NCBI GenBank assembly: GCA_028875655.1
Contig: JAPPCX010000069.1
Coordinates: forward strand, 13,268-77,267
Source of the DNA: Chloroflexota bacterium
GTDB lineage: Bacteria; Chloroflexota; Dehalococcoidia; Lucifugimonadales; UBA3495
Direction: 5' to 3'
DNA length: 64,000 bases
The notes under the pieces were generated by a model. That model saw only the letters and a program-made list of their open reading frames with translations, did not search any database and had not been told where the DNA came from. Position 1 is the first letter of the stretch, and each line of letters opens with the position of its first letter. Positions 15,324-61,971 of the stretch are shown in pieces. The position numbers and the translations under genes are program-made.

Positions 15324-15378
15324 CGGCATACCATCAGTTCACTTGCCCCGAGCGCGATACAACGCGGAGGAACCGCAG

Positions 15379-16074
15379 ATGACGACAACGTTGACGACCG
15401 TAATGCCGCCGGCCCGGCCTTTCAGCGTGGAGGAATGCGCCGCCCTGGCGCAGGCTGGCATCATTGACGCGGGCGAGGAGGCCGACGTGCTGGCGGGCCG
15501 TCATCGCTTCACGGTGGACGAGTTCCTGGCCATGGAGGCGGCCGGCGTTCTGTACAAGTCCGACCGTGTTGAGCTGATCGATGGAGTGATAATCATTATG
15601 CCGCCAATCGGCGATAGCCACGTAAGTGGGTCCAACTGGGGAACCACCTTGTTCGTACCGCCGCTGTTGGGGCGCGCCACCGTGCAGGTGTCCGGGCCAA
15701 TATACCTGAACGATAACACTGCACCGCAGCCCGACATCACGCTAGTGAGATGGAATGCTCCAGGTTCCGGCGTAACCGGACATGCCACGCCGGAGGACGT
15801 GTACCTAGTCATCGAGTTTGCCGACACTTCGCTGGCGTTTGACCAGGGGCCGAAGCTGGCCCGGTACGCCGCCGCGGGCATCCCAGAGGTGTGGGTGGCC
15901 AACCTGCGGGCGCGGGAGGTTACCGCCTACGCGGAGCCGTCGGGCGCCGAGTACGGCAACGTCCGCACGTATCGCGTGGGAGAGAGCATCAGCCCGGGCG
16001 CTTTTCCCGACGTGGCGCTGGCGGTGGCCGATTTTATGCCGCCGGTCGATGAGGAGAGTGGGGAGCCGCTCTAG
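15379..16074 (+). CDS. Uma2-family (DUF820) putative restriction-endonuclease-like protein
   Basis: A GGAGGA RBS precedes the ATG at 15379. Motifs: RVELIDGVIIIMPPIG..H, PDITLV, YLVIEFADTS, AAGIPEVWV. Confidence 0.8.
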   Translation: MTTTLTTVMPPARPFSVEECAALAQAGIIDAGEEADVLAGRHRFTVDEFLAMEAAGVLYKSDRVELIDGVIIIMPPIGDSHVSGSNWGTTLFVPPLLGRATVQVSGPIYLNDNTAPQPDITLVRWNAPGSGVTGHATPEDVYLVIEFADTSLAFDQGPKLARYAAAGIPEVWVANLRAREVTAYAEPSGAEYGNVRTYRVGESISPGAFPDVALAVADFMPPVDEESGEPL

Positions 16075-17741: not shown

Positions 17742-18236
<495 letters not shown>

Positions 18237-30155: not shown

Positions 30156-30166
30156 GAGGACTAATC

Positions 30167-30934
30167 ATGCGCACCAACACCACCAAAGCCAAGCTCAACG
30201 ATGGCGGAGTCGTGTTCGGGGCGATCATCACCCGTTACGCTCCCGACATGGTCGAGATTTTCGGCGCGCTGGGGTACGACTTCGTGATGATTGACTGCGA
30301 ACACGGCCCTGCTGACCTGGACCAGGTCGAGCACATGGTCCGCGCCGCCGAGTCTTTCGGTATCACGCCCATCGCGCGGATTCCCGACCATTCCGATCAG
30401 ACGATACTGCGTTACCTGGACCGTGGGTTGCAGGGCATTATTGTGCCTCACGTCAACACCGGGGAGCAGGCGGCGGCCATCGCCCGGGCCGCGCGTTACT
30501 ATCCCGACGGCTACCGGGGCATGGGCGGCGGGCGCGCCCAGGACTACGGCATTGGCGTTAACCGCGACGAGGCCACCGCCTGGGTCAACTCCCAGGTGCT
30601 GGTCATCCCGATGGTGGAGGACGTTGAAGCCGTGGGAAACCTGGACGACATTCTTGCGGTGTCGGGCGCGGACGTTCTGCACGTGGCGGCGTCGGACCTG
30701 GGCCAGAGCATGGGCAACCCCGGGGTCGCCGAAGTGCGCAAGGTGATGAGCGACGTTATTCCGCGAGTGCGCGCCGGCGGCAAGCACGTCGGAGTCGGTG
30801 GCAACAACCCGGCAGACACCGCCGGCGTCGCCGAGTTCGTGAGGCAGGGGGCGAACTTCGTGACCGTCTCGGGTTGGGGCCTGCTCCGCATCGCCGGAGA
30901 AAATTTCCTGCGAGACGTGAAAGCCGCGCTGTAA
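30167..30934 (+). CDS. HpcH/HpaI-family 2-keto-3-deoxy-acid aldolase
   Basis: 255 aa with an HpcH/HpaI-like pattern: DFVMIDCEHGP, PIARIP, GIIVPHV, IPMVE. Confidence 0.75.
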   Translation: MRTNTTKAKLNDGGVVFGAIITRYAPDMVEIFGALGYDFVMIDCEHGPADLDQVEHMVRAAESFGITPIARIPDHSDQTILRYLDRGLQGIIVPHVNTGEQAAAIARAARYYPDGYRGMGGGRAQDYGIGVNRDEATAWVNSQVLVIPMVEDVEAVGNLDDILAVSGADVLHVAASDLGQSMGNPGVAEVRKVMSDVIPRVRAGGKHVGVGGNNPADTAGVAEFVRQGANFVTVSGWGLLRIAGENFLRDVKAAL

Positions 30935-30960
30935 CTTATATCTTTGTGCCGAAAACCGTG

Positions 30961-30982
30961 GGGGCGAATAATCATTCGCCCC
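30961..30982. terminator. Hairpin GGGGCGAAT-aatc-ATTCGCCCC between convergent genes (repeat family with 33736-33767)
   Basis: Perfect 9-bp stem located between the stops at 30934 (+) and 31009 (-). Confidence 0.7.
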
Positions 30983-31008
30983 TACAACTCTATGACTGTG
31001 TGTCTTCG

Positions 31009-32136
31009 CTAGCCCGTCCGTTCCGTCTCAATCCGTTCCCGCAATATGGGCAGTAACTCATTGGCGGCCCGCTCGCATTCCTCAACGTGGGGGAACCCAC
31101 TCAGGATAAACTCGTCGATGCCCAGCCGCCAGTATCCCAGCAATTCATCCGCTACCTGTTCCGCCGTGCCCACCAGCGCGCTGCCGCAGTTCACCCGCAC
31201 CTCGGACAGCCCGTTCCAGAGGTGTTTGCCCAAGCGGTGATCCTCGGCTTCCCTGGCCTGGGCCTGCTGCCCGACCATGGGCGTGCCGGCGATTGCCGAC
31301 TGGCGTTGCGCCTTGACTTCCGGCGCGGCGTCGGCGATGAGGCTGCGGGCGGCGTCCCAGGCTTCCGCCTCACTGTTCCTGATTACCAGGTGGGTACGCA
31401 GCCCCAAATTCACGGGCCGACCGGTGACGTCCAACTGTTCGCGCAGGTCGTTGACTCGCTGAGTCGTGTCCGGCAAAGGTTCGATCCAACCCAGGTGCAC
31501 ATCCGCCTGCCGGGATGACAAGCCCAATGCTCGTGGGGATGCTCCGCCCAGGTAGAAGCGTGGGGCATCGTCGCCCGGAGCAGGGGCGCAGTAGGCGTCT
31601 TCCAGCCGGTAGAAATCGCCCTGGTAGCTGACCGGCTGCGGTTCCTGCCAGAGAGCGCGGCAGGCTTCGATGAACTCCTCGGCGCGCTCGTATCGGGTGG
31701 CGTGGCTGCTGACCTCGCCAACGCGCTCAAAGTCATTCTGGATGCCGCCAGGCACGATGTTGATGTCCAGCCGCCCGCCGGACATTTCGTGGAACGCCGC
31801 CGCCATCTGCGCGAACAGCCCCAGCGCGATGAACCCGGGACGGACGGCCACCAGGAACCGGATGCGCGACGTCACCGCGGCGAGGGCGGTGGCGGTGGTC
31901 CAGGTCTCGGCCAGCGGGGCGTCCTCCGAGAACAGCCCGTTGGCGAACCGGGTGGGTATGAGCATGGAGTAAAAGCCGCAGTCCTCGGCGGTTTGGGCAA
32001 CCCGTTTCAGGTAGTCAAAGGTGGGCGGACGCTGCGCGCGCAAAGTGCCGGCGCGGTGGCCGTCGCCGTCGATGGGGATGAACCAGTCGAAACGGGGTTC
32101 GGGGCGTCGGAGAGTTCCGTTGTTGTTAGCCATCAA
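31009..32136 (-). CDS. LLM-class (luciferase-like) flavin-dependent monooxygenase, SsuD-like
   Basis: 375 aa with a luciferase-like TIM-barrel pattern (FDWFIPIDGDG..., LDINIVPGG). Confidence 0.75.
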   Translation of the reverse strand: MMANNNGTLRRPEPRFDWFIPIDGDGHRAGTLRAQRPPTFDYLKRVAQTAEDCGFYSMLIPTRFANGLFSEDAPLAETWTTATALAAVTSRIRFLVAVRPGFIALGLFAQMAAAFHEMSGGRLDINIVPGGIQNDFERVGEVSSHATRYERAEEFIEACRALWQEPQPVSYQGDFYRLEDAYCAPAPGDDAPRFYLGGASPRALGLSSRQADVHLGWIEPLPDTTQRVNDLREQLDVTGRPVNLGLRTHLVIRNSEAEAWDAARSLIADAAPEVKAQRQSAIAGTPMVGQQAQAREAEDHRLGKHLWNGLSEVRVNCGSALVGTAEQVADELLGYWRLGIDEFILSGFPHVEECERAANELLPILRERIETERTG

Positions 32137-39802: not shown

Positions 39803-41038
39803 ATGACGCAGCAACAACCCCAGCAACAGGTCGTGGAAACGCTGCCCGAAGTGGAGGGCGGCATCTCCGACGAAGCCCTCGCTGCCGCCCGCGCCATGAT
39901 CGGCGTGCGGATGCGCACCGAGCAGTACGTCCGCCAGGCCAACCTGGACACCATGCTCAACTTCGTCAACGGCATCGGCGACGCCAACCCGCTCTTCCGC
40001 GATCAGGAATACGCCGCCTACTCCAAGTACGGCAGCGTCATCGGCCACCCCTGCGCGCCGTACATGCGTCATTGGTCGGGCCGAACCCGTTGGGGCCTGC
40101 CCGGCGTCCATGGCTTCTTTGCCGGCAACGATTGGGAGTTCTTCCGCGTCCTGCGTCCCGGCGATGCCGTCAACTGCGTGGAGCGCGTGCTGGACGTGCA
40201 GGAGAAGCAGAGCCAATACTCCGGTCGTCTGGTCATCCAGTACGTTGAGACCACCTACTCCAACCAGCGCGACGAGGTGGTCGCCCGCGTGGTGGGCTGG
40301 TGTACCCGCCACCAGCGCCGCGCCTCCCGCGAGCGCGGCAAATACGCCGACGTGCCCAAGCGCCACGAGTACACCGAGGACGAACTGGCCGCCATCGACG
40401 AGCAGGTGCTCAACGAAACCGCCCGCGGCGGCCAGCCCCGCTACTGGGAGGACACCGAAATTGGCGAGGAACTGCCCACCGTCGTGCGCGGCCCACTATC
40501 CTTGCAGGACGTAAGCGCGTTCCTCGTCGGCACCGGACGCTCCAGCGCCCACGGCGTCCTGCTCCGCGAGGCCATGCGCCATCCCAACCACTTCTTCCGC
40601 AACCCCGAATCCGGCGGCGGACTGGAATATACGGGCATCGGCCACCTGCGCGATTCCGTCGCCGAGGCCGTCGGAGTCCCCGGCGCCTACGACTACGGCC
40701 CGCAGCGCGTCTCGTGGCTGGGCACGTTGATGACCAACTGGATGGGAGACGACGCCTTCCTCAAGCGCCTGCGCGTGGAAACCCGCCGCTTCAACGTCTA
40801 TGGCGACACCCAGTTCCTCAAGGGCCGCGTCGCCCGCAAGTACATCCACGACGGCAACGCCCTGGTGGACGTGGACATCTGGGCCGAAAACCAGCGGGGC
40901 GAAGTAACCGCCCCCGGCATGGCCACCGTGCAGCTCCCTTCGCGTAACCCCCACAACCCCTGGTTCACCGACGGCAGCCACCTCTCCCTCCGCAATGTCC
41001 CCCTGCCGGAGGAGGCCCCGCCAATACTGCCGGTTTGA
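39803..41038 (+). CDS. Double hot-dog MaoC-like (R)-hydratase/dehydratase
   Basis: 411 aa. The N-terminal MaoC_dehydrat_N-like region (NFVNGIGDANPLFRD) is followed by a second hot-dog half. Confidence 0.7.
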   Translation: MTQQQPQQQVVETLPEVEGGISDEALAAARAMIGVRMRTEQYVRQANLDTMLNFVNGIGDANPLFRDQEYAAYSKYGSVIGHPCAPYMRHWSGRTRWGLPGVHGFFAGNDWEFFRVLRPGDAVNCVERVLDVQEKQSQYSGRLVIQYVETTYSNQRDEVVARVVGWCTRHQRRASRERGKYADVPKRHEYTEDELAAIDEQVLNETARGGQPRYWEDTEIGEELPTVVRGPLSLQDVSAFLVGTGRSSAHGVLLREAMRHPNHFFRNPESGGGLEYTGIGHLRDSVAEAVGVPGAYDYGPQRVSWLGTLMTNWMGDDAFLKRLRVETRRFNVYGDTQFLKGRVARKYIHDGNALVDVDIWAENQRGEVTAPGMATVQLPSRNPHNPWFTDGSHLSLRNVPLPEEAPPILPV

Positions 41039-41039
41039 T

Positions 41040-41384
41040 ATGATGGATGAAAATGACGAAGAACATGGCTCGACTTTCTTTCCGTGCCCGTATTTGGGAG
41101 GCCTAGCGGACCTGAATGATGAACGGGAGAGGCACATCAGAGATGGTCACGGTGAACTCCTCCCTGAGCGTGTTGAACTTATCGAGCTCACATTAGCCGC
41201 TCCGGAACGGATACAGCGCAAGATACCGGACGATAACTCCCTCCAATTCTGTCGCTGGTATCAGGATTTGGGAAAGTACGTGGTCGTAGCCGTGGTCAAC
41301 GATTCCAGACCGCGCAAGTGGATAGTGACCGCCTATGTCACCCACAGATTGCCCAGAGGAGAAATAATATGGCAGCGCGACTGA
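41040..41384 (+). CDS. Putative toxin, barnase/EndoU/RelE-like (PBECR/DUF4258-type) small protein
   Basis: 114 aa with ERHIRDGHGELLP...AAPERIQ...KYVVVAVVND...WIVTAYVT. The pattern, from memory, is H-I-x-x-x-H-P-E-like plus a VTAY tail. Confidence 0.45.
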   Translation: MMDENDEEHGSTFFPCPYLGGLADLNDERERHIRDGHGELLPERVELIELTLAAPERIQRKIPDDNSLQFCRWYQDLGKYVVVAVVNDSRPRKWIVTAYVTHRLPRGEIIWQRD

Positions 41385-41779
41385 GTTTTGCCTACGACAG
41401 GATCGGCGATATCCTGTTCGTAGGCAAATGCCGCCCATATCGGGAGCAAGACTCTGATGACATCGAGGATATGGTCATTGCCAGATTCAACCCGCATACC
41501 GACGAGGTTGAAAGCTTTGAGGTGTTGTTTCTGTCAGGCCGAATTGCCAGCCACGACCCGTTCCAGTTGAACATCCCAGTTGCCGCCGGCGCAATCAACG
41601 ACCAGCCGGTGCCGGCTGAATTCGACTGTCTGGTAGAACCCGGCTTAGAATGGCTCACCATCCCACGCGCCGCCGTCGTGGGCATGGAGCTGGACACCCG
41701 GCCCCCCAAACGCCCCACCTATCCCGGCAACCGTCCCGCCGACGTAAGCCGCTTCGAGTTGCAACTTACCGCAGCCTGA
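41369..41779 (+). CDS. DUF2283-like putative antitoxin
   Basis: MAARLSFAYDRIGDILFV...DMVIARFNPHTDEVESFEVLFLS fits the DUF2283 pattern. Overlaps the preceding ORF by 16 nt. Confidence 0.5.
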   Translation: MAARLSFAYDRIGDILFVGKCRPYREQDSDDIEDMVIARFNPHTDEVESFEVLFLSGRIASHDPFQLNIPVAAGAINDQPVPAEFDCLVEPGLEWLTIPRAAVVGMELDTRPPKRPTYPGNRPADVSRFELQLTAA

Positions 41780-41904
41780 TGCCCACCATGCTGGACGTAT
41801 CGCATTTGCAGTCTGCGGATTAGCGCTACGGACTAAACCCGTCCTCCGGTATCAGCACAGCTCGGCGGAGAGTTAGGGCCGTCGCTTCTGTCACAGCTCC
41901 GCCA

Positions 41905-43266
41905 TTGTCGAAAGTTATCATGTTCACGATTGGCGTAGTTTTACGTCGTTCCACGTTGTTGGTATTCACGGTTTTCGTCTTGACCGCTTGTGGTTCGGAT
42001 ACGAAACCCACGGCTACTCCCGAAGTTGCAGCACATATTGCTACGGCGGTGACGCGGACCCAGACTCTACCCGCTGCTACGGCGTCGCCACAACCGATGC
42101 AACTGCAACCCGCTACATCAGTGCCACCCCCGGAACCTACAGCTACGCTGGAGCCAACCAAAACCCCAACTGCCGCGGTGACACCGGCACTGTCGCCGAC
42201 GAAAGCGCCTACTCTAACACCCGAACCAACGCTTACGCCGACGCCTGAGCCAACGCCGTATGTCATACATGGCTATTGTGGCCGTTTATGTGATGAGGCG
42301 TTTTGGGTTTCTGCTGCAACAATCGAAAGCGTGCAGGATGAACTGGATGAAGGTGCAGATCCCGGAGCAAAGGATGAATTCGGTCAAACCCCGTTACATT
42401 GGGCATCGAAGCTGAACACGTTAGTGTTTAATTCTGATACTACGGCCATTGAGTTACTCTTGGATCATGGTGCCGACATTGATGCCAAGAATAGCCACGG
42501 TTGGACGCCCTTGGTTGAGATTGCTGATACGGACAACACCGCAGCCATAAACTTTCTGCTAGAACGAGGGGCTGATGTCAACGCGAAGGATAATCGCAAC
42601 TCTACGGCATTACACAGAGCCGCGACTACTTATCCCGATCGCATCGAGTCGTTGCTCTATCATGGAGCTGACATAGATGCCCAAGACAATGAGGGTATGA
42701 CACCCATGCATTACGCGGCATTTGATGGAACCCTCTCATCTATCACGACGTTACTCGACCACGGGGCCGATATGTCTATCAGAGGCAGCAATGGCATGAC
42801 AGTCCTTCATAACGCCGCTGTTTATAATCACGACCCGGCAGTCATTAACCTTCTGATGGAAAGAGGTGCGAATATTAATGTTAAAGACAACAGAGGTAGA
42901 ATACCTTTACATATCGCTGCCGCTGATTTCAGCGAGCCGGCGCGAATAGCATTGCTGTTGGATTTGGGCTCTGATATTGAAGCTAGTGATGAGCAAGGCG
43001 CGCGGCCATTGCATTATGCTGCAACTAATGAGGATGTCAGGATAACTGGACTGCTACTTGACCGTGGTGCCGATGTTACGGCTAAGGATTATGCCGGCCA
43101 AGCGCCATTGCATTATGCGGTGTTTAACGGAGAACCGACTGTTGTTTCGCTATTGCTCGACCAGTCTGCCGATATTGCGGCCAAAGATTATTATGGCCAA
43201 ACGGCCTGTGATTATGCAGAGGCAAATGATAGCTTGCCGGAGATCCGTCTTCTCGTGTGCCAATGA
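41905..43266 (+). CDS. Ankyrin-repeat lipoprotein (about 9 repeats) with a Thr/Pro-rich linker
   Basis: Lipobox VLTAC, a TPEPTLTPTPEPTP linker, then repeated TPLHxAAxxxxxxxxxxLLxxGAD units. GC is visibly lower than the flanks. Confidence 0.85.
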   Translation: MSKVIMFTIGVVLRRSTLLVFTVFVLTACGSDTKPTATPEVAAHIATAVTRTQTLPAATASPQPMQLQPATSVPPPEPTATLEPTKTPTAAVTPALSPTKAPTLTPEPTLTPTPEPTPYVIHGYCGRLCDEAFWVSAATIESVQDELDEGADPGAKDEFGQTPLHWASKLNTLVFNSDTTAIELLLDHGADIDAKNSHGWTPLVEIADTDNTAAINFLLERGADVNAKDNRNSTALHRAATTYPDRIESLLYHGADIDAQDNEGMTPMHYAAFDGTLSSITTLLDHGADMSIRGSNGMTVLHNAAVYNHDPAVINLLMERGANINVKDNRGRIPLHIAAADFSEPARIALLLDLGSDIEASDEQGARPLHYAATNEDVRITGLLLDRGADVTAKDYAGQAPLHYAVFNGEPTVVSLLLDQSADIAAKDYYGQTACDYAEANDSLPEIRLLVCQ

Positions 43267-43366
43267 TTTTGTCCGGCACCCTTGCCGAATCTGTCGGCCG
43301 ATGACCCACACCCAAGTCAGTGATACAGTGACCTACAGTTGCCTTCACAGCCAGTAGCAGTGTGCC

Positions 43367-43703
43367 ATGACCATCATCGCCAAACCCACCACCGACACTC
43401 CCACCGCCATCGCCCCCGACGGCGCCATCGTTCTGCGTCTCTCGGCCTTGGGCATCGACCATCGCGCCGCCGATTTTCCCGTGCGGTTCATCGAGTTCTG
43501 CGAGCAGAACGATCTGTACGAGATGGAAGTCACCGCCGAGGGGGAGTTGCTGATACTTCCTATGACCGGATACCAGGGCAACAAGCAAGAACTTAACGGG
43601 TCAATCAGAGCCGCAGTTACTCGATGCCCCGGACATCCTTGACGGTGACGACGTGCTACCCGGATTCGCCTTCCCGGTACGACGGTACATCTTCGATATA
43701 TGA
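43367..43703 (+). pseudogene. Decayed Uma2-family endonuclease gene (internal deletion plus frameshift)
   Basis: The N-terminal part (YEMEVTAEGELLILPMTGYQGN) ends at a TGA at about 43640. The family C-terminus (DILDGDDVLPGFAFPVRRYIF) continues in another frame. Total length is about 112 codons against about 190 expected. Confidence 0.65.
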
Positions 43704-44935
43704 ATATGACTAGCAGCCCCAGACCCACCACAGCCCTCCCCAACCTCCGCGTCCTGGAGGTTGCGTCGCTCATCCCCGGCCCCTACTGCGGCAAGCTCCT
43801 CGCCTCTCTCGGCGCTACCGTCATCAAGGCCGAACCACCCAACGCCGGCGACCTTTCCCGACGCCGCGGCCCCTTCCCCAACGACGTTCCCCATCCCGAG
43901 CGCAGCGGCCTGTACCTTTACCTCAACACCGGCAAGCAGTCCATCACCCTCAACCTGCACGACCTGGCCGGACGCGACCTGCTGCGCCAACTGGTCGCCC
44001 GCGTCGATATGGTCGTCCACGACTATACGCCGGCCAACGCTGCCGCCGTCGGACTCGACGAACCATCCCTCCGAGCCGCCAATCCCAACGTCATCATCGT
44101 CCCAGCAACCCCTTTCGGCAGCACCGGGCCCTACGCCGACTACCGCGCCGGACACCTCGCCACGTTCCACGCCGGCGGCGAGGGCTGGCTGCTCCCCAAC
44201 GGTGTCGCCCTCGATACGTTCCCCGACCGTCCGCCCATCGTGGCCGGCGCCAACATGGGTGACTACCAGGCGGGGCTCACCGCCGCCGTGGGCGCGCTGG
44301 CCGCCGTCCATCATCGCCTGGCCAACCCCGACGCATCCGCCGGCCAGATGGTTGACGCATCATCCCAGGAAGCCCAGTTGTCCGTCGGCTACATGCCCAT
44401 CCAACGCCACGAATCTGAGGGCATCACTGAGACCCGATTCTCCCGTTATTTCCGCGTCGGCGGCGTGCTACCCGCGTCCGACGGCTACGTGGAGTTGCTG
44501 ACGCTGGAGCCGCGCCAGTTCCAGGGCCTCCTCGAATTCATGGGTAATCCTGACTGGGCCAGCCCTGAGATGTTCAGCGACCCGGCCACCCACGGCCCGG
44601 AACTCAACCGCCACATGCGCGACTGGTTCAGCCAGCACACCCGCGAGTGGCTCTACGCCGAAGGCCAGGCCCACGGCGTCCCCGTCGCGCCCTACTACAC
44701 GCCGTCCGAGGTTTTCGCCAGCCCCCAGCAGCGGGAACGCGACTTCTACGCCACGGTCAACCACCCCGAAACCGGCCCCCTGGAATACACCGGCGCCCCC
44801 TTCCAGCTCAGCGAAACCCCCACCACCTTAACCCGCGCCTCCCTCCTCGGCGAGCACAACGCCGATGTGTACTGCGGGCTGCTGGGCTATGCGCCGCAGG
44901 AGTTGGCGGCACTGAGGAGGGCCGGTGCGGTGTGA
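43700..44935 (+). CDS. Family III CoA-transferase (CaiB/BaiF), paralog 3
   Basis: LPNLRVLEVASLIPGPYCGKLLASLGATVIKAE. 411 aa. Confidence 0.85.
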   Translation: MNMTSSPRPTTALPNLRVLEVASLIPGPYCGKLLASLGATVIKAEPPNAGDLSRRRGPFPNDVPHPERSGLYLYLNTGKQSITLNLHDLAGRDLLRQLVARVDMVVHDYTPANAAAVGLDEPSLRAANPNVIIVPATPFGSTGPYADYRAGHLATFHAGGEGWLLPNGVALDTFPDRPPIVAGANMGDYQAGLTAAVGALAAVHHRLANPDASAGQMVDASSQEAQLSVGYMPIQRHESEGITETRFSRYFRVGGVLPASDGYVELLTLEPRQFQGLLEFMGNPDWASPEMFSDPATHGPELNRHMRDWFSQHTREWLYAEGQAHGVPVAPYYTPSEVFASPQQRERDFYATVNHPETGPLEYTGAPFQLSETPTTLTRASLLGEHNADVYCGLLGYAPQELAALRRAGAV

Positions 44936-45090
44936 ATAGTCCGAGCGCAAAAAGGCTGGCCGGATTCTCGATTTTCGCGCCGCCATCAGTTAGTTTGAGA
45001 TCATCGGTCTCAACGAATTGCAGGTCGTTTGGCATCGAAACAAGATTTCCACTAATATACCGACTTCCTTACTACATTCAGGTGATCATC

Positions 45091-46005
45091 ATGCTAGAAC
45101 GTACTATAGACCTTGAAACCACTACTTGGACTCTGGTCTATGATCGGCAAGGCCAAGACATGGTCAGCATTGATGCGGAAGATTTGGCCGATACGCTACA
45201 GGCTCTCCGCCAGATAGTGCAACGAAGCAATCAGATCGTCAATGGCGCTGCTTCGGATGCTTCTCTGCGAGTGCTAGCCACAAGACCGGGATCTTTTGAT
45301 CTAGTTTGTCAGATGTCGGTAATGTTTGCTGGGGCTATGGTTCCGATGGCATCTCAGTACGGCCCTGCTGTCATGGCTCTCAAAACCCTTTTGTTCGGGG
45401 GCAGTGACGTAGAAGGCATTTTTAATATATTCAAGTATCGCCGAGGCCACCCAATCAGGCCTCAAAATATTACGGCGGATGTCGTGAACATTGTAGAAGG
45501 AGATGTGAATTACAATATTACAGTAGACGAACAAAGTATTTTGCAAGATGTTATCATCCAGACTGGAATGCGTGATATGGTAAGACCAATGCAAAGAGGG
45601 GATGTCGACGTGATGTCATTTCGAGATGACGATCGTGAGATGGTGACTTTCCACCACGATGATTTTGATTGGCGTGTCATGGAAACGGTCGCTTCGGAGG
45701 AGTTCAATACTATCAACATAGATAGTCAGCGTTTGCGCGTAGTGGCACCAAATCTAGGCAACCCCTACGCAAAATGGCGCTTGAGTGATGGTTCTACAAC
45801 AAATTGGTACTCTATATTAGATGAATCTTTCTTGAAGCGCGTTACCGATGGTGAAGAGCGATTCGGCACAGGGGATACTCTTGAATGCAGAGTCCGGATC
45901 GTACAATCTGTAGACGATATGGGCAAAATCAGAAGTGAGTATTTAATATCACGAGTGGCCACCCACTACGCGGGTGGAGTGCAATTGGCTCTTCCCGAGG
46001 TATGA
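45091..46005 (+). CDS. Orphan hypothetical protein in an AT-rich islet
   Basis: ATG at 45091 preceded by AGGTGA. 304 aa. Codon usage and GC (below 50% by eye) differ sharply from the neighbours. The upstream part of the 452-aa track ORF is overlap with the CoA-transferase gene. Confidence 0.6.
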   Translation: MLERTIDLETTTWTLVYDRQGQDMVSIDAEDLADTLQALRQIVQRSNQIVNGAASDASLRVLATRPGSFDLVCQMSVMFAGAMVPMASQYGPAVMALKTLLFGGSDVEGIFNIFKYRRGHPIRPQNITADVVNIVEGDVNYNITVDEQSILQDVIIQTGMRDMVRPMQRGDVDVMSFRDDDREMVTFHHDDFDWRVMETVASEEFNTINIDSQRLRVVAPNLGNPYAKWRLSDGSTTNWYSILDESFLKRVTDGEERFGTGDTLECRVRIVQSVDDMGKIRSEYLISRVATHYAGGVQLALPEV

Positions 46006-46220
46006 TCCATCTGCCCCCGATGGAGTCCGGCTCCAAGTAAGACTTGTCTCCTCGAATCACGGTCAGGTCGTGTTGCTCGGTCTTGCAAGGGTGAAATTTG
46101 ATCCTCTCATGGTGTTGGTGCATTGCGTTGGCGTGGGCTGTCGCGTCGTATAATGCCTCTATTCTCGCGAACCCATCCGCCCGAAACGCGCCGGGTTCGC
46201 CATCACTGGAGGCAATCCCT

Positions 46221-47042
46221 ATGGACTTCGGACTCGAAGGTAAGCTCGCATTCGTCGGCGGCGCCAGCCGCGGCATCGGCAAGGCCATCGCCCTGGAACT
46301 CGCCCGTGAGGGCGCGGACGTCGTCGTCGGCTCTCGTTCCATGCCTGACCTGGAAGCGACCGCCGCCGAAATCGTCGAGACCACCGGCCGCCGCGCCATC
46401 CCCATGTCCTTTGACGCTACCAACCGGGAGCAGGTGGACCGCGTTATCAACGCCGCCGCCGATACCCTGGGCGGCCTGCACATCCTGGTCAACAGCGCGT
46501 CCCTGCCCGGCGGCTCGCCCAGCGCCACCGGGCCAATCGAGGACCTGATCGATGAGGACCTGATCAGCGACTTCGACGTTAAGTTCGTTGGCGCGCTGCG
46601 CTGCTCCCGCGCCGCCATCCCTCTGCTCAAGGCCCAGGGTTATGGGCGCATCATCAACATCAGCGGACTCAACGCCCGCAACGCCGGCAACCTCAGTGGC
46701 GGCGCGCGCAACACCTCCCTGGTCCACATGACCAAGACCCTGGCCGCCCAGCTGGGACAGTTCGGCATCACCGTCAACTGCATCCATCCGGGCACCACCC
46801 GCACCGAGCGTACCCCCAGCCTGCTGGCCGCCCGTGCCGAGCAACTCGGCGGCGTATCCCTGGAAGAGGCCGAGGCCCAGGACTTCGCCCCCGGTTCGCC
46901 CCGCGGCAACCACATCTGCCGCATGGTGGACGCCTCCGAAATCGGCTACCTCACCGCCTTCCTCGCCTCCGATAAAGCCTGGGCCATCACCGGCGAACTC
47001 ATCGCAGCCGGCGGCGGCACCGGCAACGCGGTGTACTACTAG
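46221..47042 (+). CDS. SDR-family oxidoreductase
   Basis: A GGAGG RBS precedes the ATG at 46221. Contains the Rossmann motif GGASRGIGKAIA. Confidence 0.8.
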   Translation: MDFGLEGKLAFVGGASRGIGKAIALELAREGADVVVGSRSMPDLEATAAEIVETTGRRAIPMSFDATNREQVDRVINAAADTLGGLHILVNSASLPGGSPSATGPIEDLIDEDLISDFDVKFVGALRCSRAAIPLLKAQGYGRIINISGLNARNAGNLSGGARNTSLVHMTKTLAAQLGQFGITVNCIHPGTTRTERTPSLLAARAEQLGGVSLEEAEAQDFAPGSPRGNHICRMVDASEIGYLTAFLASDKAWAITGELIAAGGGTGNAVYY

Positions 47043-47069
47043 GGCGGACGGCTACTGCGGAGCATTGCC

Positions 47070-48272
47070 ATGACCAACTCAGCCGCTCCCCTCTCCGGCG
47101 TCCGCGTCGCCGACTTCTCCGTCCACGCCGCCGGGCCTTTCGCGGGCATGATCCTGGCGTCGTTGGGCGCGGACGTAATCAAGGTGGAGTCGGCGGCGCG
47201 GCTGGACATAACGCGCCGCCCTCACGCCATGTACGGCAAGCCGCCGTCGTCCTTCGAGCAAGTCAACGGCAGCAAGCGCTCCGTAACCCTCAACCTCAAG
47301 GAGCCGCGGGCGCTGGAGCTGGCCTACGACCTGGTGCGCATCTCCGACGTGGTGCTGGAGAACTTCCGGCCGGGCGTCATGGATCGCCTGGGCCTGGGCT
47401 ACCCGCAACTTCGTGAGATCAAACCCGACGTCATCATGGTGTCGCTGTCGTCCAACGGGCAGACCGGCCCGGAGGCCCGCTACGCCGGGTACGCCCCCAT
47501 GTTCGCTGCGCTGGGCGGCCTAGGCTACCTCACCGGCTACCCCGATGGGCCACCAGTGGAACTGCGCCACGCCATGGACCACACCGGGGGCATGATGGCC
47601 GCGTTTTCTGCCGTCGCCGCCCTGTGCGCTCACAGGAACCACCAGGTTGGGCAGCGCGCCGACGTTGCCGTCCGCGACATCGCCACGGCCTTCATGGGCC
47701 ACGCCCTCATGGACACCGCCATGAATCAAAGGGACGCGCAACGCATGGGCAATCGGGACGACGCCATGGCACCACACGGCGTGTTTCCCTGTCTAGGCGA
47801 AGACCAATGGATCACCATCACCGTGGCTAACGATACCGAGTGGGATGCTTTGAAGCAGGCAATGGGCAACCCCGCGTGGGCCGAATCCGACGACTACGGC
47901 GACGCATTCCAGCGCTGGCAAAACCAGGATGCTCTCGAAGCGCGCCTGTCCGAATGGACCGCCGCCCGCGACGCCTTTGAACTCACCGCGCTGTTGCAAG
48001 ACGCCGGCATCGCCGCTTTCCCATCGCTCTCCGCTGACCAGTTGATGGATGACCCGCACCTCGCGGCCCGCGAGGTGTTCCCGTTGACTACTGACCCGCA
48101 CCGTGGACAGCAACGCGCCGTCGCGCCGCCATGGCGTTTCTCTGAGACTCCCACCGACCCGTTGCGCTGGACGCCGGAACTTGGCCAGAGTAACCAGGAG
48201 GTATTCTGCGGCCTGCTGGGCATGGACGAAACTGAACTGCGCTCGCTACAGGATGCCCAGATCGTTTGGTAA
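47070..48272 (+). CDS. Family III CoA-transferase (CaiB/BaiF), paralog 4
   Basis: LSGVRVADFSVHAAGPFAGMILASLGADVIKVE. 400 aa. Confidence 0.85.
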   Translation: MTNSAAPLSGVRVADFSVHAAGPFAGMILASLGADVIKVESAARLDITRRPHAMYGKPPSSFEQVNGSKRSVTLNLKEPRALELAYDLVRISDVVLENFRPGVMDRLGLGYPQLREIKPDVIMVSLSSNGQTGPEARYAGYAPMFAALGGLGYLTGYPDGPPVELRHAMDHTGGMMAAFSAVAALCAHRNHQVGQRADVAVRDIATAFMGHALMDTAMNQRDAQRMGNRDDAMAPHGVFPCLGEDQWITITVANDTEWDALKQAMGNPAWAESDDYGDAFQRWQNQDALEARLSEWTAARDAFELTALLQDAGIAAFPSLSADQLMDDPHLAAREVFPLTTDPHRGQQRAVAPPWRFSETPTDPLRWTPELGQSNQEVFCGLLGMDETELRSLQDAQIVW

Positions 48273-48299
48273 CTTACCGGTTCCGCCAGGAGACAAACC

Positions 48300-49103
48300 G
48301 TGACCGATTACTCCTCATACGAACACCTGCTCATCGAAAAATCCGACGGCATCATCACCCTGACGATGAACCGTCCGGAAACCCTCAACTCCACCAACTT
48401 CAAGCTCCATAACGAGTTGAGCCGCATCTGGCTCGACATCGCCGCCGACCCCGAGGTCCGCGTCGCCGTCGTCACCGGCGCCGGCGAAGCCTTCTCCGCC
48501 GGCGGCGACTTTGAGATGATCGAGCAGGCCATCGACAACCCGGCCATCGTCGCCCAGAACACCAAAGAGGCCGGCGACATCGTCTATAACATCCTGAACC
48601 TTGACAAGCCGGTCATCTCCGCCATCAACGGCGTTGCCGTGGGCGCCGGCCTGGCCGTGGCCCTCATGGCCGACATCTCCATCGCCGCCGAAGACGCGCG
48701 CATTACCGACGGACACATCCGCCTCGGCGTCGCCGCCGGCGACCACGCCGCCATCATCTGGCCCCTGCTCTGCGGCATGGCCAAGGCCAAGTATTACCTG
48801 CTCACCTGCGACTTCCTCGACGGCAAAGAGGCCGAGCGCATCGGCCTCGTCAGCATGGCCGTGCCCCGCGACGAGCTCATGGAAACGGCAAACCGGATCG
48901 CCCGCCGCCTCGCCGACGGCCCCCAGCCGGCCATCCGCTTCACCAAGCGCGCCCTCAACCAGTGGCTCCGCCAGGCCGGCCACACCTCCTTCGACTACTC
49001 CCTCCTCGCGGAAGCCTTGGGCTTCTTCGGAGACGACGTCAAGGAAGGCCTCGCCGCTCTCCGCGAACGCCGCCGCCCCGAATACCCCTCCGCCTCTGCC
49101 TAG
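48300..49103 (+). CDS. Enoyl-CoA hydratase/isomerase (crotonase) family protein
   Basis: Oxyanion-hole region [19 protein letters not shown]. 267 aa. Confidence 0.85.
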
Positions 49104-52934: not shown

Positions 52935-54928
52935 CGGTCGTTCTCGGCATCCCATCGCAACGTTATCCGTGTGGCCGGCGATTCCAAGGCATCGCTCAGG
53001 ACCCAGACAATCCAGTCCTGCCGAACTCGGTTGTTGACCGGCACGAATCCATCCGCCACCCAATTATTCGCGTGGGCGTCGGATTCGTCGCCTGAAACGC
53101 GCATCGCCTGCAAACACATTCCCGGCCCGTTGATGGCATCGTCGGTAACGTAGTGGAACCTTACCAACGCGTTCTGGCCGGCGTATGCCGCCAGCGAGGC
53201 CTCCCCGTACTGCCAACCATCCGACGCGCCCGTGTAGCCAAACCCGTAGCTGTTTCCCACCGGGTTGGCGTCCGTTGTGCCCGTTGCCCGCAGCACCTCC
53301 CAGGTTTCTCCATCGTCCACGGATGCCGACACGTAAAGGTAGTCCCATTCCTCCTCGATGTTGTGCCAGTAGCGGTAGGTAAGCCTGGGCTGGGACCCAT
53401 CCGCCGCCGGCGCCGGGACCGTCAACCGCCGTGTCAAGGTCGCGGAGATTGAGTCGCCCCGATTGCTCCACCAGCATACGCCGTCCACTTCCGTCGGCAG
53501 CAACGGCGTCGTGGCGGAACCCTCAAAATGCACGGTCGCGTTCCCTGGCGCGTCCTGAATCTCGACGTAATCGATGCCGTACTGAGCCAGCGATTCCACA
53601 GGTCCTTCATCGTCCGCCGGCTGCCGCCGGGTGATGGACGCCTGCACATCCAGGTTCCGGTATCCGTGGGGGCCGGACTCCAGGTCTTGGCGGTTCGCCA
53701 CCATCCAGTCCGCGAACACCGTAGCAAAATCAACCGGCTGGCCGTGGGCGGTTGTCGCTCCCCGTTGGGTCAAAAACTCATCGACGGCGGCGATCCCGTC
53801 GCTTTGAATCGCCAGCAGGTCCTGTAGTCCTCCCTCCGGCGCGTATTTTTCCCGCAGATAGTGGGCGAACAGCGCGGCCGCCCCGTAGTTCAAGCCCACG
53901 TCGGCTTCCAGGTGGTCGGGCCAGTTGACCAGCGACGCATCGGGTCGGCGCAGGTAGCGGTAGATGCTTCTGGCCTGGTACCCGGCTTCCGTCACCGCCA
54001 GTTCGGAGAGTCCTTCGTTCAACCAGGTGGCCTCGGATTCGTCGGCCTCCTGGTGAATTACGTGCTGCAATTCGTGCGCCAGTATGTTCAGGAATCCGGC
54101 GTCGCCGTAGGCCGCTGCACGCGTATTGATGTAGATGGCCGACACCTCGTTGCTGTACGGGCTGACGCTGGATGGATAGCGGTCGCTTCCGGATACATAA
54201 CCGCCAACGCCGGGAATCCGCCCGCTGATGACGTGTACCCGGTCCGGTTCGTCGCCACTGGCGAATACGGCTTCGACCCATGGAAAGACCCGACCCTCAG
54301 CCTCAGCTACGGTGTCGGACAACGCTTCGTCCTCTACGGATACGGCGTCGGCGATCCACCAGTAAGCGTTGTCCGAAATAGCGAGCAGGCGGAACCGGTT
54401 GTTCACCATCGTGCGCCGTGGGTAGTCCAGCGTCCAGAAGTCGCGGACATCGCCGACCCGCCAGCCGTCGTTGCCCGGTTGCCCGGTCGCCGGCGGCTCA
54501 GCGCCTTGCCACCGCATTTGTTGAGCCAGGAGCCAGAGGTCGCGCGGGGGTGGAACCGGAAAGTCGCTGGCCGTCATTGCGCGTTCCGGTGATTGATCCT
54601 GGCGTGATTCGCTTTCGCCGCTCTGATTGGCGCGTCCGGCCGGGCGTGCCGGCGCGGTGTCAGATTCGGGAGTAGCGGTCATTACGACGGTGGACGAGGG
54701 AGTCCCTGTGGCCGGGATTCTGGTAGCCTCGTCCGCAGGGATAGTGGTCGCCGCGGGAGCGTATTGCACGTCGCCGGCCGGGTGGTCTGCAGCGCACCCG
54801 ATCCCTATCCACAGCAACGCCAGAAGCACGAACAGGGTCGCCAGCCGGGGCCGCAAAGCGATCAGCGGTCCGTGGCCTCCATTGCTATGGCTCGGGGCTG
54901 GGTGGCTGCTCATTCGTGTCCGGTTCAT
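52811..54928 (-). CDS. Secreted or lipoprotein gluzincin (MA-clan, M1-like HExxH...E) metallopeptidase
   Basis: Lipobox-like IGIGC, then LAHELQHVIHQEADESEATWLNEGLSE (HExxH plus a downstream NEG-type Glu). 705 aa. Confidence 0.7.
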   Translation of the reverse strand: MNRTRMSSHPAPSHSNGGHGPLIALRPRLATLFVLLALLWIGIGCAADHPAGDVQYAPAATTIPADEATRIPATGTPSSTVVMTATPESDTAPARPAGRANQSGESESRQDQSPERAMTASDFPVPPPRDLWLLAQQMRWQGAEPPATGQPGNDGWRVGDVRDFWTLDYPRRTMVNNRFRLLAISDNAYWWIADAVSVEDEALSDTVAEAEGRVFPWVEAVFASGDEPDRVHVISGRIPGVGGYVSGSDRYPSSVSPYSNEVSAIYINTRAAAYGDAGFLNILAHELQHVIHQEADESEATWLNEGLSELAVTEAGYQARSIYRYLRRPDASLVNWPDHLEADVGLNYGAAALFAHYLREKYAPEGGLQDLLAIQSDGIAAVDEFLTQRGATTAHGQPVDFATVFADWMVANRQDLESGPHGYRNLDVQASITRRQPADDEGPVESLAQYGIDYVEIQDAPGNATVHFEGSATTPLLPTEVDGVCWWSNRGDSISATLTRRLTVPAPAADGSQPRLTYRYWHNIEEEWDYLYVSASVDDGETWEVLRATGTTDANPVGNSYGFGYTGASDGWQYGEASLAAYAGQNALVRFHYVTDDAINGPGMCLQAMRVSGDESDAHANNWVADGFVPVNNRVRQDWIVWVLSDALESPATRITLRWDAENDRYVGSVPVQTSSDERLVVAVAPLAPATMESAEYRLWVESGR

Positions 54929-55523
54929 CCCGGCGCGGATCGGTATTGTAGCGGTTCATTGCTATATTGATGCCTTCGGACAACAGACATTCCACCGCCT
55001 CGGCTGCTCTGAAGATGGCATCGGCCACCGCCGGAGTCTCCTCGTCCGAAAAACGGCCCAGCACGTGGTCAACGCTGCCCGACATGCCGGGCCCTCCGAT
55101 GCCAATGCGCAGTCTAGGAAAATCTACTGTATGCACCGCTCGTATGATGTCCTTGATGCCGTTGTGCCCGGCGTCGGAGCCGTGCGCGCGCAGGCGAATC
55201 CGGCCCACCGGCAGCGCCATTTCGTCGTAAATCACCACCAGGTCCGCCGGCCGGCCGCCGAACCTCGCCAACAGATACGCCACCGACTCGCCGGACAGAT
55301 TCATGAACGTCCGCGGCTTGGCCAGCACCACCGGCTTCCCGTCCCGGTATCCCTGCCCCAGCGCCGTGGTCCGACGACGGTCGCTGATGGCAATCCCCCA
55401 GCGCTGCGCCAGCAGGTCAACGCAGCCGAACCCCACGTTGTGACGGGTATCCCGATAACGAGGGCCTGGATTCCCCAAGCCCAGGATGATTCGGGTAGGT
55501 ATGCGTTCCTGCTCCTGTTCCAT
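54885..55523 (-). CDS. pth: Peptidyl-tRNA hydrolase
   Basis: Start refined to MEQEQERIPTRIILGLGNPGPRYRDTRHNVGF. Confidence 0.9.
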   Translation of the reverse strand: MEQEQERIPTRIILGLGNPGPRYRDTRHNVGFGCVDLLAQRWGIAISDRRRTTALGQGYRDGKPVVLAKPRTFMNLSGESVAYLLARFGGRPADLVVIYDEMALPVGRIRLRAHGSDAGHNGIKDIIRAVHTVDFPRLRIGIGGPGMSGSVDHVLGRFSDEETPAVADAIFRAAEAVECLLSEGINIAMNRYNTDPRRDEPDTNEQPPSPEP

Positions 55524-55710
55524 GACCAACTCGGCCAACAAGGTTGCCACGACACCGCGCCGTTGACAAGGGCGATAGCGCCGGCGTGACGCGGCTCCCG
55601 CGCTTTTACAGCATAGGTCGTTCCTGATATAGTTTCGCAGCGTACTTGGCGCACTCTCCCCGGCCCAAGCCGGGGGTTTTATTTCCAACACGTAGCCTGT
55701 TCGTGCTTTC

Positions 55711-56475
55711 ATGGGTCACATTCGTAGATTGGCTCCGGTTCTGACGCTCGTTGCCGTGATATGCGTCAGCGCCTGGTTGCTGGCGTGTGCTGCGCCCTCG
55801 TCGGACGGACCGGATGCGGAATACGCGGCCACGGTCCAGGCTTTGCTCCCGACATCGGAATCTTCCCCGGCGACCCCCTCCCGGAGCGACACTGCCATCC
55901 CGCTTACTGATGCTCCGGCCACTTCAACCGATAGGCCGCTTCGCGCCACTGACACGCCGGTTCCCGTCATCAACACGCCGGAACCGACCTATACCCCCAG
56001 GCCATTGCCGACTTACACGCCGCGCCCTGCTCCCGTTCCCGCCAGCGAAAGGGAGCGCACCCAGGGAGTACCGTTCCAGGCCGAAACCCTGGACGGGTCG
56101 GTGTTGACCCTGACGGATACCTATGGCACTCCGACGCTGCTGGCGTTCTGGGCGCCCTGGTGACCCCACTGCCAGCGGGAGTTGCCCGCTGTCGCCGCGC
56201 TTTACCGGGAGGAACTGCGGGACGCCGGCGTGCATATCATCGGCGTGTCCCAGTTCAACACCACCGAGGTGGCGACCAGGGAGTTTGTGGAGCGCAATGA
56301 ACTCACCTTCCCAAACTTCTACGACCCCGACGCGGCGGTCGCGTCCGCCTACGGAATCAGGGGCGTTCCCACCTACGTTTTCCTGGACAAGGATGGCCGC
56401 GTGGCGCGCACCAGCGCCGGAGCGCGGGGAGTCGGGCTGATCGAAGCGGTGCTGAACGAATTGCGTGTGGAGTGA
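55711..56475 (+). CDS. TlpA/ResA-like thioredoxin-fold lipoprotein with an in-frame TGA (candidate selenocysteine, U-x-x-C) at 56161-56163
   Basis: Lipobox LLAC. TLLAFWAPW-TGA-PHCQRELP matches FWAxWCxxCxxExP. The same frame continues (track ORF 56182-56475) through the cis-Pro motif GVPTYVFLDKDG. Confidence 0.7.
56173..56191 (+). promoter_or_regulatory. Candidate bacterial SECIS hairpin
   Basis: CAGCGGG-AGUUG-CCCGCUG is a perfect 7-bp stem starting 9 nt after the UGA, with G-U in the apical loop. Confidence 0.45.
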
Positions 56476-60866: not shown

Positions 60867-60903
60867 GTCAGGGCACTGAGCTTCAGGACTGGCGGGAAAT
60901 CTG

Positions 60904-61971
60904 ATGGGCGTTGGCGTATTGCAACAATACCGTGAACTGCTGCCGGTCAGCGAGGAGACCCCCATCTTTTCTATGGGGGAGGGGGACACGCCGCTGGTGA
61001 GGTCTCGAAATTTGGGGCCTGAACTGGGATGCGACCTGTATTTCAAACTGGAAGGATGCAACCCCACCGGATCTTTCAAAGATCGGGGGATGGTGGTGGC
61101 CATCGCCAAGGCCATGGAAGAACATTGCCTGGGCGTGATGTGCGCTTCTACCGGGAATACCAGCGCGTCGGCCGCCGCCTATTCGGCGTATTGCGGTCTG
61201 ACTTGCTGGGTGCTGATTCCGAAAGGTGAGGTGGCCCTGGGCAAGCTGGCCCAAGCCATGGCCTACGGGGCGCGCATCATTCTGGTGGATGGCAATTTTG
61301 ACGCCGCGCTCGCCCTGGTCCGGCAGTTCACCGAAACAAGCCCGATCACTTTGGTAAATTCGGTCAACCAGCACCGGATCGAAGGTCAAAAGACCGCCTC
61401 GTTCGAAGTGTCCGACGTGTTAGGCGACGCTCCAGACTACTTGTTTATTCCGGTCGGCAACGCGGGCAACATCACCGCCTACTGGCGAGGGTTCGTTGAA
61501 TATCACCAGCTTGGCCGCAATGATTCGTTGCCCAGGATGATGGGTTTTCAAGCCGAGGGCGCGGCCCCCATCGTTCAAGGCAAACCCATACCTTATCCGC
61601 AGACCATCGCGTCGGCCATACGGATCGGGAACCCCGCGAGCTGGAAATTCGCTGAACGGGCACGCGACCAGTCCGGGGGCGTAATCGATGCCGTTTCCGA
61701 CGACGAAATCCTGGACGCGTACCGCCTGCTGGCGTCGCAGGAGGGTATTTTCGGCGAACCCGCCTCCGCCGCGTCGGTCGCGGGGTTGCTGAAATTGTCC
61801 CGCAACGGCCTGGAATTGCGTGGGAAGCGGGTTGTGTGCGTCGTTACCGGCACGGGTTTGAAAGACCCTGACCTAGCCGTCAGCAGCGCTCAGGCGCACA
61901 CGGTCGAAATCCAGCCGAACCTGGAGGCCATTGAATCGGCGATCATGGAATCCATTCCCAAGGGATCTTGA
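60904..61971 (+). CDS. thrC: Threonine synthase
   Basis: PLP-lysine motif NPTGSFKDRG. 355 aa. Follows hom. Confidence 0.9.
   Translation: MGVGVLQQYRELLPVSEETPIFSMGEGDTPLVRSRNLGPELGCDLYFKLEGCNPTGSFKDRGMVVAIAKAMEEHCLGVMCASTGNTSASAAAYSAYCGLTCWVLIPKGEVALGKLAQAMAYGARIILVDGNFDAALALVRQFTETSPITLVNSVNQHRIEGQKTASFEVSDVLGDAPDYLFIPVGNAGNITAYWRGFVEYHQLGRNDSLPRMMGFQAEGAAPIVQGKPIPYPQTIASAIRIGNPASWKFAERARDQSGGVIDAVSDDEILDAYRLLASQEGIFGEPASAASVAGLLKLSRNGLELRGKRVVCVVTGTGLKDPDLAVSSAQAHTVEIQPNLEAIESAIMESIPKGS

Follow-up and report, generated by a model that had tools for sequence, protein, structure and literature searches.

A candidate selenoprotein gene of the ResA/TlpA-like thioredoxin-fold family lies at positions 55711-56475 of the 64,000-nucleotide stretch of Chloroflexota DNA analyzed here (hereafter the window). 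According to the list of open reading frames (ORFs) and our reading of the sequence, the ORFs 55711-56163 and 56182-56475 on the forward strand share one frame, and the sole break between them is the TGA at 56161-56163. The junction is ...GTPTLLAFWAPW-TGA-PHCQRELPAVAALY..., also readable as TLLAFWAPW-TGA-PHCQRELPAVAALY, which gives the motif FWAPW-TGA-PHC-QRELP. Reading through the TGA yields a product of 254 residues, with the TGA as residue 151 and no further stops or frameshifts. Comparison with orthologues shows that 55711-56475 is a single gene.

Fold, orthologues and Cys homologues of the gene

With the TGA written as Cys in the fused product, the Pfam search assigned residues 122-232 to AhpC-TSA (PF00578; E-value 9.1e-23, 81 bits against a cut-off of 26) and residues 124-239 to Redoxin (PF08534; 2.8e-20, 73 bits against 26.6), both matches spanning residue 151. 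The best match in PDB is Bacillus subtilis ResA (3c71, E-value 2.9e-18), with the matches to ResA and its relatives ranging from 2.9e-18 to 1e-15; StoA, Mycobacterium tuberculosis DsbF and other TlpA-like proteins rank below the ResA chains. The alignment against ResA is unbroken over residues 9-137 of the 142-residue domain and takes in strand beta1, the CxxC site, the Glu-[Leu/Phe]-Pro segment and the cis-Pro. In this alignment, WAPW[U]PHCQRELP falls on WGTWCPHCKKEFP and GVPTYVFLDKDG on the cis-Pro loop, with U-P-H-C-Q-R-E-L-P and G-V-P-T facing the corresponding ResA motifs. The cis-Pro motif of the product is GVPTYVFLDKDGRV, its Pro being encoded at 56368-56370.

Among the NCBIfam models, the ResA subfamily (NF002854) ranks first with 90.3 bits, below its cut-off of 170, followed by StoA, and the ResA-like WAxxUGC selenoprotein model (NF041054) gives 59 bits (E-value 4.7e-16) against a cut-off of 300. 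As the ResA and WAxxUGC scores are both below their cut-offs, the protein is by sequence ResA/TlpA-like, and not an equivalog of ResA or of any named family. Its family placement is drawn from domain scores above threshold, a CxxC-type site followed by xxE[LF]P and the cis-Pro, and an N-terminal anchor. The original prediction had described two same-frame ORFs split by one TGA, a thioredoxin-fold active site in which the TGA replaces the first Cys of CxxC, and a downstream cis-Pro motif, and had suggested aligning the fused 254-residue product to the TlpA, ResA and redoxin families. Its coordinates and junction match at every checked point, the cis-Pro is present, and the AhpC-TSA, Redoxin and ResA matches run across the TGA, the last being continuous at the active site.

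A genome scan with one genome per species provided 50 Dehalococcoidia loci and a partial 51st (L052), with flanks of ~20 kb each; a "SAR202 cluster bacterium" and sponge-associated bins are among them. Complete chromosomes with an orthologue include OZ242258.1, OZ241987.1, OZ220699.1, OY764869.1 and OY282456.1. All 51 SAR202-like Dehalococcoidia orthologues have TGA as the internal codon, in frame between FWAPW and P-[H/Y]-C, compared to a terminal stop that varies among TGA (23), TAA (19) and TAG (9). Protein search recovered about 98 clusters of 60-98% identity, all of them 97-residue C-terminal fragments with the same first residue, gene callers having been halted at one point throughout, and the clade of the gene, as recovered, is restricted to SAR202-like Dehalococcoidia. 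The 36 codons upstream of the TGA have an amino-acid identity of 0.66 and the 103 codons downstream one of 0.71, and about 50% of the identical residues are encoded by differing synonymous codons. By this comparison, purifying selection acts on both halves. They remain side by side in one frame even where the neighbouring genes change; the order pth, target gene, rpsF-ssb-rpsR is found in only 14 of the 50 loci, and the remaining loci have unrelated neighbours.

Motif-based lipobox prediction detected, in at least 46 of the 51 orthologues, a hydrophobic stretch and after it [LIVT]x[GA]C, and the distance from the lipobox Cys to the TGA-encoded residue ranges from 93 to 170 residues. The protein is thus predicted from the motif to be extracytoplasmic, held by an N-terminal lipid anchor.

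Outside this set, the codon changes. The closest Cys homologue (P0091, at locus L059), which is also the nearest full-length homologue, has 167 residues and 51% identity, reads FWAPW-C-PYC-QKELP and has TGT at the site. CxxC, with TGT or TGC, is likewise found in every homologue from Planctomycetales, Omnitrophota, Thermoanaerobaculia, Runella and Bacteroides. When the region downstream of the site was folded, P0091 gave -1.7 kcal/mol, and the Cys forms averaged -4.9 kcal/mol against -13.3 kcal/mol for the TGA forms, a gap to which the lower GC content of some out-groups contributes.

The hairpin downstream of the TGA

The hairpin starts 9 nt past the TGA (gap 56164-56172) and consists of the arm CAGCGGG (56173-56179), the loop AGUUG (56180-56184) and the arm CCCGCUG (56185-56191), with a local free energy of -13.2 kcal/mol. 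There are 42 perfect 7-bp hairpins in the window, and for 1.2% of its TGA triplets such a hairpin begins 5-20 nt further on. Because the hairpin is only mildly unusual in the single sequence, the case for selenocysteine (Sec) rests on comparative evidence.

The hairpin region of 51 sequences could be aligned without gaps (alignment A2). Its stem positions are paired in 92% of cells, and sliding the 3' arm by 1-3 columns lowers this to 45-63%. Pair 17-33 appears as AU in 20 sequences, GC in 20, CG in three, UA in one and GU in one, and pair 18-32 as GC in 31, AU in 11 and GU in four. None of 500 shuffles matched the observed covariation score, and RNAalifold independently recovered a 6-bp core. 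The covarying pairs join a synonymous change (CAG/CAA or GGG/GGA) on one arm to an Ala/Val replacement on the opposite arm. Moreover, codon entropy is 0 at Arg+5 (CGG), Glu+6 (GAG) and Pro+8 (CCC), each identical in 51 of 51 sequences, compared to 0.24-2.08 bits at all other conserved codons of the gene; Leu+7 is TTG in 46 of 48. The loop follows the consensus A-G-U-U-[G/U/A] across the orthologues. Altogether, the comparison shows that the downstream stem is selected as an RNA structure. The perfect 7-bp stem with its AGUUG loop, which the original prediction had placed 9 nt after the UGA, is confirmed, with covariation and frozen synonymous sites in addition.

In its published description, the bacterial selenocysteine insertion sequence (SECIS) follows the UGA immediately and is a stable stem-loop whose small apical loop contains G (PMC1088965). 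The hairpin 56173-56191 has this SECIS-like form, and it is accompanied by Sec/Cys pairing at the site and by conservation on both sides of the TGA.

Decoding of the TGA and the alternatives

We propose, with a probability of about 0.88, that the in-frame TGA encodes selenocysteine and that the gene specifies a genuine UxxC lipoprotein selenoprotein, dependent on SelB via the hairpin. The UGA at 56161-56163 would be recoded as selenocysteine in translation under the direction of the SECIS-type hairpin, the apical loop of which begins 16 nt after the UGA, has G-U at loop positions 2-3, and presumably recruits SelB with Sec-tRNA(Sec). The pre-lipoprotein of ~254 residues would be exported, lipidated at Cys26 and tethered on the outer face of the cytoplasmic membrane, from which the Pro/Thr-rich linker would hold out the thioredoxin-fold domain with its active site Sec151-Pro-His-Cys154. 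A selenolate in place of the nucleophilic Cys may join Cys154 or the cysteines of a substrate in a transient selenenylsulfide, which would make the protein an extracytoplasmic thiol-disulfide oxidoreductase.

Indirect evidence speaks well for Sec decoding by the organism. The window contains a second candidate, an FTR catalytic-subunit-like gene at 17742-18236 (-), in which C-H-TGA, with the TGA at 17910-17912, stands for CHC and the CPC motif is retained. It matches the NCBIfam model "FtrB family double-selenoprotein" (FtrB_double_U) weakly (E-value 1.1e-10, 41 bits, cut-off 160), and the UGA is followed at a distance of 17 nt by a possible hairpin, GGGC-GGUCU-GCCC. Of 80 metagenomic relatives, 75 have TGC or TGT at the aligned position and five have TGA, the TGA cases including relatives of 97% and 92% identity. 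The gene probably represents a variant, with one Sec, of the FTR selenoprotein already known, a family described from Global Ocean Sampling (GOS) data (PMC2398784). A second candidate in the same 64 kb had been predicted, and the TGA/Cys pair bears it out; the expectation of Cys orthologues without the hairpin also agrees with what was found, as P0091 has TGT and no hairpin, the out-groups are CxxC, and the TGA is kept in all orthologues of the gene.

Two metagenome-assembled genomes of Dehalococcoidia are among the top ten bacteria of BSepDB by number of selenoprotein genes, with 49 and 46, and entry into this database requires at least two Sec-pathway genes per organism (PMC13326102). Our literature search found no paper joining "selenoprotein" and "SAR202", and "selenocysteine" together with "SAR202" only in incidental mentions; Peng et al. 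2016 has nothing on Chloroflexi.

Genome-wide reassignment of TGA was considered and rejected, as TGA ends eight of the 24 Pfam-supported genes in the window and also terminates the present gene in 23 of the 51 species. Elsewhere in the window, the ORF of a pyridoxal phosphate (PLP)-dependent (PALP) enzyme at 60880-61971 (+) ends with ...IPKGS-TGA-PCLRCDYTNHDR, where 22 further in-frame codons follow; this TGA is probably a true stop.

Several observations weigh against the assignment of selenocysteine. The window and the 50 loci yielded neither tRNA-Sec, searched with ARAGORN, nor selA, selB or selD; the loci, at ~20 kb per genome and ~1 Mb altogether, are uninformative on this point. The tblastn search of the window and loci with approximate Escherichia coli SelA, SelB and SelD queries returned only a generic GTPase match, and Pfam annotation of 55 ORFs of the window revealed no Sec genes. 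The fold of the 61-nt region is not exceptional against shuffles (z = -1.33). Rfam has no usable bacterial SECIS model; its scan of the whole window at gathering thresholds gave no match, and a permissive scan of 56100-56300 gave opposite-strand noise only, outcomes that count neither for nor against Sec. The hairpin has 19 nt, 6-7 bp and no bulged U, whereas the SECIS of E. coli fdhF is much longer, and the 16 nt from the UGA to the loop lie at the lower limit of the spacing in the consensus for bacterial SECIS elements. None of the NCBIfam selenoprotein models passes its cut-off with the fused product. The neighbourhood offers no clue to the substrate either, and ccdA, resBC and sco were not found nearby. 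Finally, selenium incorporation is argued from sequence comparison, from which we infer the insertion of selenocysteine and not of another amino acid, the binding of SelB to the hairpin and the direction of the redox reaction.

Selection on a translated codon and on a hairpin does not by itself fix the inserted amino acid, and, together with the Sec machinery not being found in the window or the 50 flanking loci, this would suit a UGA that is read through without selenium, perhaps aided by the hairpin, by a near-cognate Trp or Cys tRNA to give a full-length W/CxxC protein. Such decoding is nevertheless very improbable. The site is the exact position of the catalytic Cys, which is Cys in the homologues; Trp there would abolish catalysis, and insertion of Cys would be better served by TGT or TGC, yet none of the 51 orthologues has either. 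Moreover, the signature of a bacterial SECIS is a hairpin that follows the UGA immediately and has a small apical loop with a G (PMC1088965), and the window contains a second redox-Cys/TGA pair in a class documented as rich in selenoproteins (PMC13326102). The chances are slightly smaller still that the UGA acts as a regulated or partial terminator, the hairpin serving for pausing or attenuation, with a functional short lipoprotein of ~150 residues made beside the full-length form. The N-terminal ORF has a conserved signal peptide of its own, and Sec insertion in bacteria is typically inefficient, with some truncated product expected. However, the short product would comprise the linker and one thioredoxin-fold beta-strand, with no active site, and upstream of the UGA only the fold elements are conserved, the linker being variable.

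Public annotation contains only the 97-residue piece, such as the orthologue MCE2501071.1 in GenBank, named "TlpA family protein disulfide reductase" and lacking the active site, and 46 of the 51 orthologues have TTG at the start of this piece. Both points would fit a pseudogene, an assembly or sequencing error, or two genes, namely an N-terminal lipoprotein and a separately translated 97-residue piece, explanations that the comparison has effectively refuted. The same TGA recurs in 51 independent genomes and, for one and the same sequence, in several independent assemblies, no other stop or frameshift occurs, and purifying selection acts on both halves. Neither the CxxC motif nor strand beta1 is part of the 97-residue piece, and the five remaining species have TTT or TTA and no start codon at its annotated start, the next in-frame start being 18-39 codons further in. 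An independent N-terminal lipoprotein, the alternative raised along with the prediction, is ruled out, as this piece carries strand beta1 and always stands in frame beside the C-terminal piece.

As to the redox role of the proposed selenoprotein, our guess, by a narrow preference, is a reductase of the ResA/TlpA type for the maturation of cytochrome c or CuA. Its scaffold and its CxxCxxE[LF]P motif are similar to those of the reductases ResA, TlpA and CcmG, and a ResA-type reductase would have a job because a caa3-type oxidase assembly factor is encoded in the genome. A role as oxidase or isomerase is conceivable at somewhat lower odds; DsbA has the same Pro-His dipeptide, and oxidases with a TlpA fold are known from actinobacteria. 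It is rather doubtful that the protein is a distinct clade-wide core selenoprotein of SAR202-like Dehalococcoidia outside the curated models, acting as the main envelope disulfide oxidase/isomerase or as the cytochrome c/CuA reductase. If so, envelope or respiratory-chain biogenesis of an abundant aerobic marine clade would depend on selenium.

The case indicates the use of selenocysteine in envelope redox proteins of SAR202-like Dehalococcoidia, including sponge-associated lineages. With truncated public records, metabolic reconstructions and protein-family statistics miss redox enzymes of abundant marine bacteria. The hairpin appears to be a clean natural minimal SECIS within the codons of a conserved active-site helix and could be of use in sharpening models of the bacterial SECIS. 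Current understanding is unchanged: earlier work has documented this class of selenoproteins, the mechanism and the wealth of selenoproteins in Dehalococcoidia. The finding is well supported and useful for annotation, and it will not surprise a specialist.

Gene surroundings and relation to known systems

Table 1. Features of the candidate selenoprotein gene and its 5' region (window coordinates)
Feature	Position	Strand	Remarks
Sigma-70-like promoter, TTTACA-17 nt-TATAGT with TG extension (putative)	55605..55633	+	10/12 matches; conserved in close orthologous loci; function inferred
5' leader hairpin and T-run, intrinsic-terminator-like, ~25 nt before the start codon	55657..55686	+	CCCCGGC-CCAA-GCCGGGG
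Complete coding sequence, 254-residue pre-lipoprotein, putative selenoprotein	55711..56475	+	One in-frame UGA (proposed Sec151); terminal TGA stop 56473-56475
Predicted lipoprotein signal peptide, lipobox L-L-A-C	55711..55788	+	Cys26 at 55786-55788; sequence reading
Pro/Thr/Ser-rich low-complexity linker	55789..56040	+	Length and sequence differ between species
TlpA/ResA-like thioredoxin-fold domain, across the UGA	56041..56472	+	Pfam, NCBIfam and PDB matches
UGA, proposed selenocysteine at the N-terminal nucleophilic Cys site of CxxC	56161..56163	+	TGA in orthologues, TGT/TGC in Cys homologues
Predicted active-site motif U-P-H-C	56161..56172	+	Family form U-P-[H/Y]-C; aligned with CPHC of ResA variant chain 3c71
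SECIS-like hairpin in codons Q-R-E-L-P-A-V	56173..56191	+	7-bp stem CAGCGGG/CCCGCUG, apical loop AGUUG
cis-Pro of the thioredoxin fold, G-V-P-T	56368..56370	+	Invariant P63 in protein alignment A1; aligned with L-P-T of ResA

The leader hairpin follows the putative promoter after ~25 nt. Together with its T-run, it is conserved in five loci (L001, L003, L004, L008 and L011) and has a variant stem in L005; Rfam gave no match for the leader block 55605-55686. It could be a leader attenuator, a stabilizing 5' stem-loop or a tiny small RNA. On the opposite strand, the longest peptidyl-tRNA hydrolase (pth) ORF, 54885-55712 (-), overlaps the start codon of the selenoprotein gene by 2 nt. The Pfam match of pth starts only at residue 75; its true start is therefore probably near 55520, leaving a divergent intergenic region of ~190 nt.

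Further away, 1479-2648 (-) encodes a 390-residue protein made up nearly entirely of ankyrin repeats (Ank_2, 4e-73). Ankyrin-repeat proteins are typical of sponge-symbiont genomes, in keeping with the close relatives from sponge-derived bins (L007, L012 and L023). An MmeI-family type IIL restriction-modification enzyme of 974 residues is encoded at 10286-13210 (+), near a Uma2-family putative endonuclease at 15343-16074 (+). The segments 39803-49103 (+) and 28485-32136 hold two family-III CoA-transferases, an enoyl-CoA hydratase, a short-chain dehydrogenase, a MaoC/FAS1-like dehydratase, a luciferase-like monooxygenase and a thiamine pyrophosphate (TPP) enzyme, which we take to be the catabolic gene set usually tied to SAR202.

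Among known systems, ResA (PDB 1ST9, 3C71 and 3C73), StoA, TlpA, CcmG/DsbE and M. tuberculosis DsbE/DsbF share the pattern W-x-x-W-C-x-x-C-x-x-E-[FL]-P and the cis-Pro with the present protein. ResA and its relatives are extracytoplasmic and membrane-tethered, as predicted for this lipoprotein, and the ResA chain 3c71 likewise has CPHC, the native ResA active site being CEPC. ResA is Cys-based and has a transmembrane anchor, whereas the protein described here has a putative Sec codon and a lipobox. The WAxxUGC selenoprotein of NF041054 is alike in its ResA/TlpA-like fold and the W-A-x-x-U context; however, its motif is U-G-C compared to U-P-H-C (UxxC) here, and only positions 90-201 of the 354-position profile match. 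Like the SECIS of E. coli fdhF, the hairpin is a stem-loop within the coding sequence that closely follows the UGA on its 3' side, has G-U in its small apical loop and is selected as RNA structure over and above the protein.

Prx-like thiol:disulfide oxidoreductase selenoproteins (PF00578, UxxC/UxxU) were reportedly described by Kryukov and Gladyshev in 2004. UxxC Prx-like and TlpA-like selenoproteins are established predicted families, catalogued under the names "Prx-like thiol:disulfide oxidoreductase", "Redoxin family protein" and "UGC-containing TlpA family" (PMC13188914, PMC9312934, PMC2398784, PMC1088965) and listed as Prx-like 1/3 in the GOS survey (PMC2398784); the claim that thioredoxin-fold UxxC selenoproteins form an established class thus agrees with the catalogues (PMC13188914, PMC2398784). 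By a naming rule of domain plus Sec motif, the predicted protein falls into this known Prx-like/TlpA-like group (Prx-like reference member WP_010940744.1), the likeness being one of domain and motif. It differs from the Prx-like class in the lipoprotein signal, the long Pro/Thr linker and the Pro-His/Tyr dipeptide. Nevertheless, they have in common an AhpC-TSA/Redoxin-type domain, Sec (here proposed) for the first Cys of CxxC, many Cys homologues, and, directly after the UGA, a small hairpin whose apical loop has a G.

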